Below, piece after piece: positions 52,100-58,062 of a DNA stretch of 64,000 bases. The stretch is from Nitrososphaeraceae archaeon (GTDB lineage Archaea; Thermoproteota; Nitrososphaeria; Nitrososphaerales; Nitrososphaeraceae). The DNA is taken from positions 64,001-128,000 of the forward strand of contig JBIOZG010000005.1 of the NCBI GenBank assembly GCA_044870765.1, given 5' to 3'. Position numbers and translations under genes: made by a program. Positions within the stretch are counted from its first letter, which is position 1. Each line of letters begins with the position of its first letter. Below the pieces are notes generated by a model. It did no database searches and was not told where the DNA came from. It was given only the letters and a program-made list of their open reading frames with translations.

Positions 52100-52681
52100 A
52101 TGAGTTTACCTCTGATTATGACGGCACTAGTGGCTATCAGCACGAATGTAGTATTATTACTATCTTTAACAGATGTCAACGCAGTAACTGTAAATAACAC
52201 AGATTTCTCTGTGGACGTGCTAGATAACTGGGCATATAGAGAGACTAATGATCCTATATCTGTTGCATTTGGTAAAGGCCCGGAACTTGGACTGGTCCCA
52301 TCCGATTTCAATGACTTCCTTCTAAATACTAGTAAGGTTTTGTCAGGAGAGGAGATTCAAAATGAGGGTGCTTATTCGATAATATCCCTTGACACCGACT
52401 ATCCTTATAGGAACGTTCCTTTAGAGACATACACCCAATATAACATTAATCTGTCCAAAGTTAAAATATTCTCTAAGGAAAATACAACCATTGATGGAGA
52501 ACCAGCAGTTAAAATTCATAGAACTGCAAGAAATAATTTAACTAATTTGGAGGTAACGGACTATTATATTGTCCATAATAGCAAACCTTACTTTTTGCAA
52601 TATGCTGCAAATGTAAATGACTTTCAAAAATACTTACCACAGTTTGAACAGATGGTAAAGACGTTCAAGTTTGTAAAATAA
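52100..52681 (+). CDS. Secreted PsbP-like domain protein
   Basis: Signal peptide, FSVDVLDNW, TTIDGEPA, YFLQY..FQKYLPQFEQMVKTFKF. Confidence 0.82.
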   Translation: MSLPLIMTALVAISTNVVLLLSLTDVNAVTVNNTDFSVDVLDNWAYRETNDPISVAFGKGPELGLVPSDFNDFLLNTSKVLSGEEIQNEGAYSIISLDTDYPYRNVPLETYTQYNINLSKVKIFSKENTTIDGEPAVKIHRTARNNLTNLEVTDYYIVHNSKPYFLQYAANVNDFQKYLPQFEQMVKTFKFVK

Positions 52682-52779: not shown

Positions 52780-53085
52780 ATGAAGGAAGAATTTCCAATA
52801 AGAGGCGAGAACAAGGAACGGATTGTAAATGATTTTAGATTAATTAAATTTCGATGTATCAGATGTGGTTCAAAAAATATACTAATAAATGAGATCCAAC
52901 CTTACGCTGATGGAATTAATTTTCATGGTCGTGGTCAGACTGCAAATCCGGAGAATGAAATTGAATTGACATTTTATGTTACTGCTCTTTTATTCTGTAA
53001 AAGGTGTAACCACAGATTTCACATGAAAATATTAGACCAAGGAACTCGCAATACAAATGTTTATTTCGACAATATGTTAACTTAG
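52780..53085 (+). CDS. Zn-ribbon hypothetical protein
   Basis: CIRCGS ... CKRCNHRF. Confidence 0.7.
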   Translation: MKEEFPIRGENKERIVNDFRLIKFRCIRCGSKNILINEIQPYADGINFHGRGQTANPENEIELTFYVTALLFCKRCNHRFHMKILDQGTRNTNVYFDNMLT

Positions 53086-53248: not shown

Positions 53249-56200
53249 TTGAGCGTCTTGATCTATGGACTAATCTTTTTGGGCTTATCCGTTCTCGTTT
53301 CATTTTCGATTCAAGATGCTTTCGCGACAACATATACCTTAGATGGGCGAATAGCCTGTGAGTCAGCGCCCTTTAACGGAGCCTGGGGTTCCACAGCTTC
53401 GGAATGCAGTGTTCTGGATGTAACCATAAGCTCTACCAATGATGTAATTATTAATTCCCCTGTTCGTCTCGCGGTTTTACAAGGTGGCAATCTCACTATC
53501 AATAATGGCGCTACAGTCACCAACAACGCCGGCATAGTCATTTATGGCCACCTGATCAATGATGGCACTCTAGTCAACGCTGAAGCCAGCACGTTTAATA
53601 TTTCTACAGCCGGCCCGAAAGGAAACCTCACCAACAACGGGAGTATCAAAAATGACGGTGCGTTTACGAACGGGGGCACTCTTGATAACACAGGGACAAT
53701 TACTAACGGTAATGGAGGGGTACTTACCAACACAGGTACCCTTTCCAATTCGGGTACTCTGACCAACGAAGGGACGATTGACAACAACTTGGGTACTATT
53801 AGCAATTCTGGAATCATCAACAATTCAGGTGCAATTAGCAATCTTGGCACAATCAACAACAGTGGCACAATCGACAACTCTGGTGTTATTGATCTATCTA
53901 CGAATGGCAACGGCAGCACGATTAACAACCTTCCCGGCGGGACACTCTCTAATTCTGGGACAATCAACATCAATCACGCCGGCCTCATTGACAACAAACT
54001 TGGCGCTGAAGTCAACAATACTGGCGATCTAATCATTTACGTCGGCGGATTCATCAAGAATGCTGGAACGATCACCAACTCTGGTGACATAAACAACGCA
54101 AATGGTGAAATTACAAATGACGGGACCATCATCAATGTCCTTGGTGAAGGAACTATTACAAACGGCGGCACGATCTTCAATAACGAGATCATCAACAATT
54201 TCTCTCAATTCACCAACACCGGTACAATAGTTAACAAGGGGTTCATTAACAACCATTCGAACTTGACCAATTCAAGAGGGACCGTCACAAACTCTGGCAA
54301 AATTAGTAATTTCGCGGGAGCAACAATAAGGAATTCGGGCGTAATCAACAATGCTGCCATGATCAATAATTATTGTGGCGGTGTACTTACCGGAACAGTT
54401 CCCAAGGGCGAGGCAGTCAATAACATTCTATGTTCATCTATCTCCATTGATGATGCGACAGTCACAGAAGGTAATTCTGGAATTAACCTTGTCTTTACAG
54501 TAACCAGGACAGGCGATCTGACCGGAACATTTAATGTAAACTATGTAACTGAAGGCGGAACCGCAACTGAAGATGTCGACTATGACCGAACTTCAGGGAC
54601 ACTAACTTTCATGGCTGGGGAATCATACCGCCTGATAACAGTAGCCGTAACCGGTGACACTGATCTCGAACCCACCGAGAAACTTAATGTGAATCTCCAG
54701 AGCTGTGTCGTATGTACCATCAGTGATGGCACCGGAGTCGGGACAATCGTGGATGACGACACTCCAATAATTTCCATAGGCGATGTCTCGATCAATGAGG
54801 GCAACGCGGGAGATACGAACTTTGACTTTAAAGTAACAAGAACAGGGGGTCTCGGAAGTTTTTCGGTCAATTTTGAAACCCAGGGCAACGCGGCAACAGC
54901 CACTGCCGGGACTGATTACCAGGCTGTTTCAGCTGGAACAGTAACGTTTGGAGCTAATGCATCAGAACAGACAATAAGAATCCTCGTGAAAGGCGACAGC
55001 ACGCCAGAGCCTAAGGAGTATTTTGGAGTGGCTCTTACCAGCTGTGCGACGTGCACGATACTTGACGGTCTAGGAGTGGGATGGATTGTAGACGATGACA
55101 CATTACCAAGAGTATCGATTAGCGACCCCTCACCAGTGTTGGAGGGCAACTCTGGAACAAAGAGCATTTTCTTTGCAGTATCAAGATCAGATACGTCAGG
55201 TAACCCATCTGTCAACTATAAGACAGAAGATGGAACGGCTGATGGAAATGACTATCAACCAGCGGGTGGAGTTGTGAACTTTCCAAATGGCATAACCAAA
55301 GTAAACGTCGAAATGTTTCTAACCGGTGATACGGCAAAAGAGAAAAATGAGCAATTCAACGTGAATCTTTCAAATTGTGTTGGATGCACTATCCTTGACG
55401 GCACTGGAGTGGGTACAATCGAAGATGACGACTTTCCATCTATCACAATCAATGATGTCGCAATGGATGAAGGAGATAAAGGGCTTATCAATTTTGTCTT
55501 TACATTAACAAATACTGGCAACCTCACAGAGGAGTCTTCAGTGAACTGGGCCACACAGGACGGATCTGCTAAAGCGGTCAGCGACTATGTGCAACTGAGT
55601 GGTATTGCAAAATTCAAACCGACGACCAGAACAACGACCCAAACAATGACCGTTGCAATCCCCGTTGTTGCTGACGAAGTAGCCGAATTGCCACCGGAAA
55701 CCTTCAATGTGATTCTTTCGAATTGTATTGGTTGCATCATTAAGGACGGAACCGGTGTGGGAACAATAAATGACGACGATACTCCAAAGGTTTACATTAA
55801 TGACGTTACTAAAGTTGAGGGCGATTCGGGAATTACTGACTTTGTCTTTAAGTTGACAAGGTCTGGCATTCGAAACGCAAGCCCGACAGTAAATTATGTA
55901 ACGCAGAGTGGCACGGCCTTTTCAGGCAGTGACTTTCAACAAGCATCTGGAACAGTTTCCGTACTTGGTAAAGCTTCAAACACATCAAACACTATCACGA
56001 TTCATGTTAGCGGAGACTCGGAAGTAGAACCGAACGAAGGCTTCAGCGTGAATCTTTCGGGCTGCAGTGGTTGCATCATTGCAGATCCTGTAGGCTTGGG
56101 AACAATCAAAGATGACGACTTTTCAGGAATCTCCATAAAAGATGCGGGGATTTGGGAAGGCAACTCTGGACAAAAGGACTTGAACTTTACGGTGACTAGA

Positions 56201-56842
56201 ACCGGCTATACCGATGGAATAGCGGCTCTACCCTGGAATACGAACGACGGAACGACTGATAGAAGCAATGACTACGTGCAGAAATCTGGAATAATTAATT
56301 TTGCAAAGGGCGAGACGGCAAAGACTATCGCGATACTTGTAAACGGTGATACTAGATTGGAAAGTCATGAGACGTTTAATGTGGAACTCGGCCCGGGTTG
56401 TACTGGATGCACCTTGGTTGACGCCAAGGGAGTGGGAACAATTCTCGATGATGACTCTCCAAGGATTTCGATACTTGATCTATCTATGAGAGAGGGAACC
56501 CGCACAACTCGTAGTTCGACAGGTGTGACAGAATTTGATTTCGTCATAGAAAGGTCAAATCTTGCAGGAGCGCCTTTGATGTGTGTTCATACTAACGATG
56601 GAAGAGCACCAAGTGCACTGGGGTCTTACTTAACTACTGTTGCTGCGGACTACTATCCTCGGGGCGACTGTCCACAGCAGAGTCCATTCAATTCCAACTC
56701 GCTTACAGCAACCATCCCTGTGTATGTTCTTAAAGACTCTGTGCCTGAAAATCCTGAGACATTCTTCGTGTGGCTTGACTCCTGTAAAGGCTGCATGTTT
56801 TACGACAATGGCGCTGTTGGAACAATCATCAATGATGACTAG
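53249..56842 (+). CDS. Large secreted adhesin-like protein: beta-helix (NxGTIxN) repeats plus 7 Calx-beta domains
   Basis: Signal peptide; Asn/Gly/Thr repeats; seven SIxD..EG..GTA..DY..E.F.V.L..GVGTIxDDD modules. Confidence 0.92.
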   Translation: MSVLIYGLIFLGLSVLVSFSIQDAFATTYTLDGRIACESAPFNGAWGSTASECSVLDVTISSTNDVIINSPVRLAVLQGGNLTINNGATVTNNAGIVIYGHLINDGTLVNAEASTFNISTAGPKGNLTNNGSIKNDGAFTNGGTLDNTGTITNGNGGVLTNTGTLSNSGTLTNEGTIDNNLGTISNSGIINNSGAISNLGTINNSGTIDNSGVIDLSTNGNGSTINNLPGGTLSNSGTININHAGLIDNKLGAEVNNTGDLIIYVGGFIKNAGTITNSGDINNANGEITNDGTIINVLGEGTITNGGTIFNNEIINNFSQFTNTGTIVNKGFINNHSNLTNSRGTVTNSGKISNFAGATIRNSGVINNAAMINNYCGGVLTGTVPKGEAVNNILCSSISIDDATVTEGNSGINLVFTVTRTGDLTGTFNVNYVTEGGTATEDVDYDRTSGTLTFMAGESYRLITVAVTGDTDLEPTEKLNVNLQSCVVCTISDGTGVGTIVDDDTPIISIGDVSINEGNAGDTNFDFKVTRTGGLGSFSVNFETQGNAATATAGTDYQAVSAGTVTFGANASEQTIRILVKGDSTPEPKEYFGVALTSCATCTILDGLGVGWIVDDDTLPRVSISDPSPVLEGNSGTKSIFFAVSRSDTSGNPSVNYKTEDGTADGNDYQPAGGVVNFPNGITKVNVEMFLTGDTAKEKNEQFNVNLSNCVGCTILDGTGVGTIEDDDFPSITINDVAMDEGDKGLINFVFTLTNTGNLTEESSVNWATQDGSAKAVSDYVQLSGIAKFKPTTRTTTQTMTVAIPVVADEVAELPPETFNVILSNCIGCIIKDGTGVGTINDDDTPKVYINDVTKVEGDSGITDFVFKLTRSGIRNASPTVNYVTQSGTAFSGSDFQQASGTVSVLGKASNTSNTITIHVSGDSEVEPNEGFSVNLSGCSGCIIADPVGLGTIKDDDFSGISIKDAGIWEGNSGQKDLNFTVTRTGYTDGIAALPWNTNDGTTDRSNDYVQKSGIINFAKGETAKTIAILVNGDTRLESHETFNVELGPGCTGCTLVDAKGVGTILDDDSPRISILDLSMREGTRTTRSSTGVTEFDFVIERSNLAGAPLMCVHTNDGRAPSALGSYLTTVAADYYPRGDCPQQSPFNSNSLTATIPVYVLKDSVPENPETFFVWLDSCKGCMFYDNGAVGTIINDD

Positions 56843-57040: not shown

Positions 57041-57550
57041 TTAAGGTTTGGAGTCGAATACTTTCTCCACACATACTTTTGCGTCAGCGTTATTGACACC
57101 CAATATTACTGTCTTTATCGCTTCGACTTTTGTTGCATTGGTCTTGGCAACGCCAATCATGTCATTTACTTCGGCATCTCCGTCTTCATTTAGTTTTGAA
57201 ACACAATTCTTGTCGTCTAGGACTACTCCATGTGAGTGCCATTGAGTATCGTTAGCCACTTCTGAACTATCCTCGGTTCCATGCGATGTCACAGCAAAAA
57301 TACCCTTATCGGTAACAAAAACATAGGCAAAAATCTGACTTGCATTTTGTGGTGTAGATGCTCCGGCCTTTCCTTCGACGCTTAACCATGGTTTTCCATC
57401 TTTAATGCCGAAATCTTTAATCTTAAAGTCCGCTTCGTTAAGACCGCTTTGGGCTAATGCACTATTTGCTCCTGCGATTAGAATAGCGCTGATAGCGATG
57501 AGAGTTGCTGTTAAAGGCAACGTTTTCTTCGAGTTTAGAGAATTCTTCAT
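57041..57550 (-). CDS. Secreted hypothetical protein
   Basis: Signal peptide, YVFVTDKGIFAVTSH..EDS..WHSH, Cys pair. Confidence 0.82.
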   Translation of the reverse strand: MKNSLNSKKTLPLTATLIAISAILIAGANSALAQSGLNEADFKIKDFGIKDGKPWLSVEGKAGASTPQNASQIFAYVFVTDKGIFAVTSHGTEDSSEVANDTQWHSHGVVLDDKNCVSKLNEDGDAEVNDMIGVAKTNATKVEAIKTVILGVNNADAKVCVEKVFDSKP

Positions 57551-57726
57551 GTCTAAAACTTCGTAATTACTATACTATAAGAAATTTACTTATTGCTTGA
57601 TCAGTTATTGGTCGATAAGCAATAAATAAACTCGATAAGTTAATTGCAAAAGTATAATTATTCTGCGATTTTTTTCATAAATTTCTAACTGTAAATTTAA
57701 ATATATTAGTGTTCGTTACTCTTGCG

Positions 57727-58062
57727 TTGAACAAAATATCAACGTACATGTTTGCGTCAATAACCGTCTTGGCAATAATGGCCATAGTGTCATCGCCGAT
57801 CGGTATTGCTAATGCAGCAGACCCGAAAAATGGATGGGGAGAGGCAACTTCAGAAGAGGCAGGAGAGGAGAAGCAAGGTAAAGAACTAGGTGAACATGCT
57901 TCAAATCCAGATGGAGACTCGACAAAAGGAAATGATAACAATGTGGATGACGGCGAAAATAGTCATCGTTCAGGACTTGGTAATTTGGCCAATCCTGATG
58001 ATCTAGGCAAATTCCTTGACTGTGCTGACCAAGACGACCCAGACGACCCAGCCTCCTGCTAA
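57727..58062 (+). CDS. Small secreted acidic protein
   Basis: Signal peptide, NGWGEATS, LGEHAS, RSGLGNLA, C..C terminus; start uncertain. Confidence 0.75.
   Translation: MNKISTYMFASITVLAIMAIVSSPIGIANAADPKNGWGEATSEEAGEEKQGKELGEHASNPDGDSTKGNDNNVDDGENSHRSGLGNLANPDDLGKFLDCADQDDPDDPASC

Follow-up and report, generated by a model that had tools for sequence, protein, structure and literature searches.

A cysteine-paired variant of the Calx-beta module in a predicted adhesin-like protein of an ammonia-oxidising archaeon

Calx-beta modules with a conserved cysteine pair

Calx-beta arrays commonly serve as the stalks of microbial surface proteins; their stiffness is generally ascribed to Ca2+ alone. 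The domain is already known from the Ca-binding domains (CBD) of the exchangers NCX1 (CBD1 and CBD12; 2DPK, 3US9) and Drosophila CALX (CBD12; 3RB5, 3RB7), which are its only relatives by sequence in the PDB, and from the tandem arrays of ordinary bacterial surface proteins. New here is a cysteine-paired variant. It occurs in a gene at positions 53249-56842 (forward strand) of a 64,000-nucleotide stretch, termed the window, of contig JBIOZG010000005.1 from a Nitrososphaeraceae archaeon. The open frame encodes a protein of 1197 residues with seven tandem Calx-beta modules, each of which carries a C-x-x-C in the turn between strands F and G. We consider it probable that the two Cys form an intradomain disulfide, which would staple the turn and act as a structural brace of a predicted Ca-binding stalk module. 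The host is regarded as an ammonia-oxidising archaeon because its genome (2.02 Mb in 59 contigs, 96.65% complete) encodes an archaeal AmoA (395 bits).

The modules of the window share with the exchanger domains the fold, the acidic Ca-ligand columns, the terminal D-D-D and a B-C loop of the R-x-G type, but they are archaeal, presumably extracellular and arranged in a seven-fold tandem. Where NCX and CALX have a long flexible F-G loop, they have a tight turn bracketed by two Cys. Like the modules of ordinary bacterial tandem Calx-beta surface proteins, they form arrays within an exported multidomain architecture, have the same length, and carry L-S-N before the turn and G-x-G-T-I-x-[DN]-D-D after it. 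The bacterial modules, however, have a P/A-x-N/G-A turn and mostly Leu at column 27, as opposed to C-x-x-C and Arg in the window. The same Cys columns and the same Arg27 are found in the C-x-x-C modules of Nitrosopumilaceae and of soil and sediment metagenomes (L015-L032, L035, L063-L121; P0149-P0196), which fall with six of the seven of the window in one clade, although the genome of the window belongs to another family of the same order.

The protein matches the Pfam Calx-beta family PF03160 at 250.2 bits (cut-off 27) in six stretches, and a scan of the whole genome with this family gave seven matches, six above the cut-off and a seventh, the diverged module, at E 7.8e-4. All seven fall within the open reading frame (ORF) at 53249-56842. 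Matches in NCBIfam were confined to sub-threshold exchanger and SVAGG hits. On the forward strand, module 1 extends over positions 54437-54760 (residues 397-504), module 2 over 54761-55099 (505-617), module 5 over 55778-56119 (844-957) and module 6 over 56120-56455 (958-1069). Each of these was delimited from the Pfam match, the MAFFT alignment, the genome scan with the hidden Markov model (HMM) and a DNA pattern. Modules 3 (55100-55432, residues 618-728) and 4 (55433-55777, residues 729-843) are in addition covered by an AlphaFold2 (AF2) model. Module 7 (56456-56839, residues 1070-1197) is diverged and contains insertions; it was recognized from the alignment, the genome scan (E 7.8e-4), the DNA pattern and an orthologue, and it harbors an additional Cys pair, C1112/C1141, which is also present in the orthologue. 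The pattern, a degenerate DNA rendering of C-x2-C-x3-D-x2-[GA]-x-G-x-I-x-[DN]-D-D, matches the window seven times, always within a module, compared to 0.00 matches expected from 100 shuffles.

The C-x-x-C motif occurs exactly seven times in the protein, at C486/489 (positions 54704-54715), C599/602 (55043-55054), C710/713 (55376-55387), C826/829 (55724-55735), C939/942 (56063-56074), C1051/1054 (56399-56410) and C1179/1182 (56783-56794). In the MAFFT alignment both Cys occupy identical columns (93 and 96 of the model) in 7/7 modules, just before the G-x-G-T-I-x-[DN]-D-D strand; the initial annotation of this DNA had placed one C-x-x-C at the same position of each of seven modules, and both the count and the flanking letters agree. 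Pairwise identity between modules is 31-54% (42% on average), and only 20 of the 111 columns are invariant across all seven, among them both Cys together with the signature residues of the fold and of the Ca ligands. The acidic residues E13, D51, D77, E81, E84, D110 and D111, which, by the alignment and the NCX1 residue numbering, would correspond to the Ca ligands of NCX1, are likewise invariant in 7/7 modules. The Cys codons vary between TGT and TGC among modules, and the residue following the second Cys is, from module 1 to 7, T, T, T, I, I, T and M. All 20 Cys of the protein are found in local pairs (37/53, 376/395, the seven motifs and 1112/1141). Since the Cys are kept as strictly as the Ca ligands at about 42% module identity, in orthologues and across a clade of about 100 domains (see below), retention by selection, as proposed in the initial annotation, is the reasonable reading, and the pair would then be a trait under constraint.

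In the database the Calx-beta part has 2778 relatives, and the comparison with ordinary modules was based on the 120 best, which, with the exception of the window's own record (P0002), are at most 42% identical to it (31-42%). An HMM built from the seven modules was used to extract 1369 domains covering the C-terminal part from the 119 nearest proteins. None of these (0/1369) has a C-x-x-C within four columns of the site, and any Cys at all was found there in 10. Column 93 is occupied by P (673 domains) or A (468), column 95 by N (814) or G (387), and column 96 by A (1103). The earlier statement that the ordinary turn is Cys-free and of the P-x-N-A type is thus borne out, and the count in these nearest database proteins, of the kind that had been suggested as a check, finds the motif in none of their domains.

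The pair is accompanied by a further sequence feature. When 47 distinct C-x-x-C domains were compared with 1692 others, columns 93 and 96 discriminated most, followed by column 27, which is Arg in 43/47 C-x-x-C domains and Leu in 1466/1692 of the others; Arg is found there in 0/17 archaeal non-C-x-x-C modules. In the pooled set of 1794 distinct domains, both Cys are present in 101, and 96 of these have Arg27; the same residue occurs in 79 of the 1693 domains that lack one or both Cys. The Ca-ligand columns of the 101 C-x-x-C domains are conserved (E13 99%, D51 100%, D77 95%, E81 100%, E84 97%, terminal D-D 93-96%), so the pair comes in addition to the Ca machinery rather than in its place. His and Met stay below 20% in every column of the C-x-x-C set, and the 101 domains contain only five other Cys in total. 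The second Cys is preceded by G in 76/101 domains, compared to N or G in ordinary domains, which fits a tight turn with a left-handed residue. N, S, T or G precedes the first Cys, and T, N, I or S follows the second.

The C-x-x-C modules are joined to at least nine unrelated kinds of exported domain, as expected of a generic structural spacer: the partners include subtilases, polysaccharide deacetylases, HYR, MAM, NHL/DUF5128 propellers, laminin-G-like, DUF11, Ig-like and CHB_HEX_C domains. One metagenome contig (L069:1-5835, GC content 0.43) codes for a frame of 1945 residues that combines a plastocyanin/azurin-type cupredoxin domain with CHRD, Ig-like and four C-x-x-C modules, the only copper-protein fusion seen. 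No description of a Cys-bearing Calx-beta turn was found in the literature searched, and in a paper on the sponge aggregation factor, the passages on Cys concern domains other than Calx-beta (PMC11670116). The C-x-x-C/Arg27 modules constitute a coherent branch of the domain that is apparently undescribed in that literature.

Distribution and origin of the branch

The C-x-x-C DNA pattern was scanned against one genome for each of 185,579 species and gave 18 loci, 16 of them in nine Nitrosopumilaceae assemblies (Nitrosopumilus, Nitrosarchaeum, Nitrosotenuis and Nitrosopumilaceae) and two in a single Acidobacteria assembly. The Calx-beta domains encoded at all 18 have Cys in both columns. When a single module was used to search longer proteins, C-x-x-C domains were found in 9/85 proteins (20/388 domains), and those with a source name are all from Nitrosopumilaceae. 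The corresponding scan of metagenomes listed 60 stretches under 59 locus ids, 56 of them with Calx-beta matches; both Cys are present in 95/97 domains of these proteins, a fraction biased upward by the choice of loci by pattern. The GC content of the metagenome contigs is 0.33-0.44, except for L070 (0.49), L092 (0.64, with four C-x-x-C modules) and L089 (0.68), so a few bacterial carriers exist. Most of the arrays contain one to five modules, and the window protein (seven) and its orthologue (eight) represent the longest seen.

A pattern-free Pfam census was carried out on 401 genomes of the window's order, and the module turns were read in 30 loci. Calx-beta domains occur in 17/401 genomes, 15 of them among the 112 genomes of one family (f13), which includes Nitrosopumilus, since its loci repeat those of the genome pattern scan. 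In the loci read, C-x-x-C modules are present in 3/16 other genomes (G158, G489 and G493), and the remainder have P..A, V..A or A..A turns. Within the window's own family, several genomes of which are incomplete, Calx-beta was detected in 2/238 genomes, namely that of the window and G158, whose single module is of the C-x-x-C type. As judged from these sequences, the pair is a lineage trait of the Calx-beta domains of ammonia oxidisers, a point that the initial annotation had missed. The branch defined by C-x-x-C and Arg has its main concentration in ammonia-oxidising archaea, about whose cell-surface and matrix proteins little is known; with its two-Cys signature and DNA pattern, it can readily be found and tested.

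The whole protein was not found in 36 genomes of the same genus, several of them incomplete. The GC content at third codon positions (GC3) of the gene is 0.444, compared to 0.315 +/- 0.034 for 1118 genes of the genome (99.6th percentile); the overall GC content of the window is about 0.36. Because of this foreign GC3, the lack of a match in same-genus genomes and the rarity of Calx-beta in the family, the gene was likely acquired laterally.

Orthologues of parts of the protein were found in metagenomes. One (L088) is 93% identical over residues 1-532, and another (L074) is 72% identical over residues 591-1197 and contains an additional eighth module with C-N-S-C. Every C-x-x-C as well as C1112/C1141 is kept in the orthologues, whereas the inner residues differ (C-T-G-C vs C-I-G-C; C-K-G-C vs C-G-G-C). 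In L074:3-2177 the eighth module has a degenerate acidic end, and the next module contains an in-frame TGA, which could reflect a pseudogene, a strain variant or a sequencing error. A rhizosphere contig with 96% identity over 1.9 kb shows one synonymous and one A-to-V change inside two of the motifs, and no Cys codon is altered among the differences listed, with 102 further differences lying outside that list. Three other loci (L017, L098 and L107) combine the beta-helix of the window protein (36% identity) with a single C-x-x-C module.

A tree was built, with columns 93 and 96 removed, from 137 domains: 47 C-x-x-C, 17 archaeal non-C-x-x-C and three P-x-G-C domains, and a random 70 of about 1,650 bacterial ones. 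All 38 other archaeal or low-GC C-x-x-C domains group with six window modules in one clade with support of 98 in the Shimodaira-Hasegawa-like approximate likelihood ratio test (SH-aLRT). The same clade also holds the three P-x-G-C modules, two Cys-less neighbours in L022 and a bacterial R27-type module of P0106. The six window modules form one sub-clade (SH-aLRT 85) and are therefore internal duplicates; module 7 is a long branch placed outside. In P0106, which contains the nearest bacterial relatives of the subfamily, the modules are of the R27 type and the turn reads A-T-G-A; two small neighbouring residues were replaced together. The two Acidobacteria C-x-x-C modules (L024 and L031), with C-T-D-C in the same two columns, fall outside the archaeal clade, and their pair is apparently of independent, convergent origin. 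In a second tree, the modules of the high-GC contig L092 are closest to the low-GC C-x-x-C modules.

Structural setting and possible roles of the pair

The AlphaFold modelling that had been suggested in order to look for an exposed disulfide or a shared metal site placed the motif in a beta-hairpin turn; it gave no thioredoxin, HMA or zinc-ribbon setting. Modules 3 and 4, modelled from an alignment of 15 rows (A1), reach a predicted local distance difference test (pLDDT) value of 94 and a predicted template modelling (pTM) score of 0.67. In both, strand F has the first Cys as its last residue but one, and a two-residue turn, made of Gly and the second Cys, leads into the next short strand. The top Foldseek matches of the pair of modules are CBD12 of NCX1 and CALX (E 1e-13 to 1e-10; NCX1 1.8e-13), and template modelling (TM) scores of 0.78-0.81, normalised to the target, to the single CBD1 chains 2DPK, 3EAD and 3E9T identify a seven-stranded beta-sandwich.

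In the crystal structure of NCX1 CBD12, CBD1 contributes its Ca loops to the interface and CBD2 its F-G and B-C loops, with the linker as a further part, and an Arg of CBD2 pairs with the Ca-coordinating terminal Asp residues D499/D500 (PMC3386913). By homology, the turn Cys pair and Arg27 would both lie at the end of the module that meets the Ca site of the preceding one. The proposed mechanism is as follows. In the subfamily, Cys takes the place of both small residues that bracket the tight F-G turn, and Arg is found in column 27, where the B-C loop begins. Outside the cell of an aerobic archaeon, where conditions are oxidising, each module would form a single intradomain disulfide between its two Cys that closes a 14-atom ring across the turn. 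If the F-G and B-C loops lie, as homology to NCX1 CBD12 suggests, at the module end in contact with the acidic, Ca2+-loaded tip of the module before it, then the staple and the Arg would stiffen each module and each stalk junction. We infer the disulfide, its position at the junction and its stiffening role as the most likely arrangement. Such a bond would represent a simple, portable brace for a Ca-dependent rod, and a marker for the exported proteins of these archaea.

The disulfide is favoured because the modules have exactly two Cys each and the whole set of 20 Cys in the protein is locally paired, because a conserved His or Met column is lacking while the Ca ligands are kept, and because the exported proteins of the genome are biased to even numbers of Cys and an exported DsbA-like oxidase is present. 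The bias was assessed with our own crude ORF call (1836 ORFs of at least 100 residues) and a hydrophobicity-based signal test, which classed the gene under study as "membrane" and hence outside the secreted-like set. Among ORFs with at least one Cys, the count is even in 110/145 secreted-like and 471/1050 cytoplasmic-like proteins (Fisher p 1.5e-12); among those with at least two Cys, the fractions are 110/121 and 471/819, respectively. The DsbA-like protein, of the Thioredoxin_4 family, is encoded at C54:72293-73040 and has an N-terminal signal anchor and a CQYC site. The independent Cys pair of the Acidobacteria is as expected if the site is geometrically suited to a disulfide.

Several observations weigh against the disulfide. 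In an idealised hairpin with the register assigned by DSSP, the Cbeta-Cbeta distance is about 6.6 A, too long for a disulfide, and with the Cys bracketing the turn it is 5.5-5.8 A, so the bond needs some distortion. The placement of the turn at the interdomain face derives from homology to NCX1 and not from contacts in the model. A VKOR homologue that would reoxidise the DsbA-like protein was not found in the 96.65%-complete genome, which we do not take as the lack of an oxidation pathway. A lone second Cys (P-x-G-C) occurs in the third module of P0149, P0150, P0159 and L114, giving these proteins an odd Cys total, which a purely structural pair would not predict; these modules may represent an intermediate or a decaying state of the pair. 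Finally, a metal knuckle likewise has its C-x-x-C at the end of a strand and in the following turn, and in L069 four such modules are joined to a cupredoxin domain.

The last two observations bear on the possibility that each module uses its two thiolates to bind a soft metal (Cu(I) or Zn). They could do so by themselves, in linear two-coordinate fashion, with help from carboxylates on the acidic tip of the preceding module, or jointly with a C-x-x-C on another chain, in the manner of the Rad50 zinc hook. The stalk of a copper-dependent ammonia oxidiser would then bear either a periodic array of metals or a zipper that depends on metal. The concentration of the subfamily in ammonia-oxidising archaea, the position of the motif at the module end that, by homology, faces the preceding Ca site, and the P-x-G-C variants, in which the second Cys persists without its partner, all speak in favour of a metal site, which, if true, would bear on the extracellular copper handling of copper-dependent nitrifiers. 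Nevertheless, we consider it unlikely. A module offers only two Cys and no conserved His, Met or further Cys, and no HMA, zinc-ribbon or other metal-site family was matched. Classical metal knuckles have Gly after the second Cys, whereas T, N, I or S stands here. On a protein exported by an obligate aerobe, free thiols would be expected to become oxidised, and the even-Cys bias of the genome has the signature of disulfides; moreover, the fusion partners are mostly proteases, deacetylases, propellers and lectin-like domains rather than copper proteins. The most elaborate form of the proposal, a seven-site Cu(I)/Zn thiolate array beside the preceding Ca2+ clusters, with the C-x-x-C/Arg27 subfamily serving as an extracellular copper-capture or metal-dependent zipper module in archaea that depend on copper for their energy metabolism, appears quite improbable. 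Strain is common in short-range disulfides that span tight turns or adjacent strands, and the distortion needed for closure in the idealised geometry would suit a labile bond that opens and closes with ambient redox and thereby changes the stiffness or adhesion of the stalk, a small effect per module being amplified by seven identical sites in series. The turn, however, has no thioredoxin-like context (helix dipole) to tune its reactivity, no dedicated reductase or partner is seen among the neighbouring genes, and many different exported enzymes carry the module as a generic spacer, which leaves such a switch with little probability. The string of Cu/Zn sites or redox switches put forward in the initial annotation is thus unsupported, given the two Cys per module, the lack of conserved His or Met, the hairpin turn, the generic fusions and the even-Cys bias. 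A buried structural disulfide with no metal or redox response, the result that the annotation itself had named as counting against its proposal, is more likely.

The pair could also be a historical accident, which arose once in an ancestral module and spread by duplication and domain shuffling without a function of its own. A single origin would cover most copies, as the six window modules form one clade within that of the archaeal C-x-x-C domains (SH-aLRT 85 and 98, with the Cys columns removed), and a few clade members (the L022 neighbours, the P-x-G-C modules and P0106) have lost one or both Cys. Against this stand the invariance of both Cys at 31-54% module identity with 20/111 columns invariant, the synonymous TGT/TGC variation of their codons, the changes of inner residues in the orthologue and the soil variant with the Cys kept, the 95/97 domains of metagenome proteins that keep both Cys (with the upward bias of pattern-chosen loci), and the independent appearance of the same pair in an Acidobacteria genome. 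We therefore regard an accident as very improbable and a structural disulfide as the probable role of the pair.

Other identities of a C-x-x-C motif were considered and rejected. A thioredoxin-fold redox site, with its C-x-x-C where a helix begins, is incompatible with the location at a strand end and two-residue turn of a beta-sandwich, and no thioredoxin family was matched. A zinc ribbon or rubredoxin knuckle has four Cys per domain, as opposed to exactly two per module. The HMA-type Cu(I) site of Atx1 and CopZ (M-x-C-x-x-C between a loop and a helix of a ferredoxin-like fold) was dismissed for the lack of an HMA match and of a conserved Met and for the beta-sandwich fold, and a c-type haem site (C-x-x-C-H) for the lack of a His after the second Cys in any module.

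Protein architecture, neighbourhood and expression

The listed frame of the gene opens with a TTG start, and its database copy (P0002) begins 10 codons downstream of it; the stop codon follows directly after the last module. Residues 1-26 (positions 53249-53326, forward strand) form a hydrophobic, signal-like segment that ends in A-F-A, with a putative cleavage site placed from the sequence and a low-confidence helix in the model. This is followed, at about residues 52-395 (positions 53402-54433, forward strand), by a beta-helix of some 340 residues, composed of six-residue repeats of the N-x-G-x-I-x type and bracketed by the Cys pairs C37/C53 and C376/C395. The AF2 model of the N-terminal 396 residues (10-row alignment, A2; pLDDT 83) is a regular beta-solenoid with four-residue strands every six residues, in agreement with the beta-helix tip predicted in the initial annotation. 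The protein terminates in N-D-D, and, as had also been noted, there is no C-terminal anchor; the metagenome orthologue ends likewise. Jointly with the disulfide staple, we think it fairly probable that the product is an exported, unanchored, adhesin-like rod, with a beta-helix head on a seven-module Calx-beta stalk.

The best Foldseek matches of the N-terminal part are the beta-helices of the adhesins Ag43 (4KH3/7KOH), TibA (4Q1Q) and EtpA (8CPK), at E 1e-4 and TM 0.2-0.3, and the long beta-solenoid resembles theirs. In contrast to these proteins, that of the window has an archaeal host and no Pfam autotransporter barrel or two-partner-secretion domain. Membership in the autotransporter or two-partner-secretion systems was accordingly rejected, the Fil_haemagg match (18.3 bits) being below the cut-off of 21.5.

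The gene is located among housekeeping genes for an anthranilate-synthase-type amidotransferase, a phosphoribosyltransferase, a tRNA methyltransferase, diphthamide synthase, SRP54, Pus10 and arginyl-tRNA synthetase (ArgRS), and no redox or metal partner gene was seen next to it in the flanks of the window. In a soil metatranscriptome library, two contigs of 151 nucleotides, one with 4 differences and the other with 0, cover positions 55629-55904 (modules 4 and 5); no other part of the gene is covered there. Contigs from an RNA library are no proof of transcription, and they hint only weakly at expression of the gene or of a close variant.

The gene is flanked by three small ORFs (52100-52681, 57041-57550 on the reverse strand, and 57709-58062) that have signal-like N-termini and lack a Pfam match; with the gene, they make up a small islet of exported proteins amid the housekeeping genes. 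A further ORF of 101 residues at positions 52780-53085 of the window contains two C-x-x-C pairs about 55 residues apart and has no Pfam match; it looks like a small zinc-ribbon protein.

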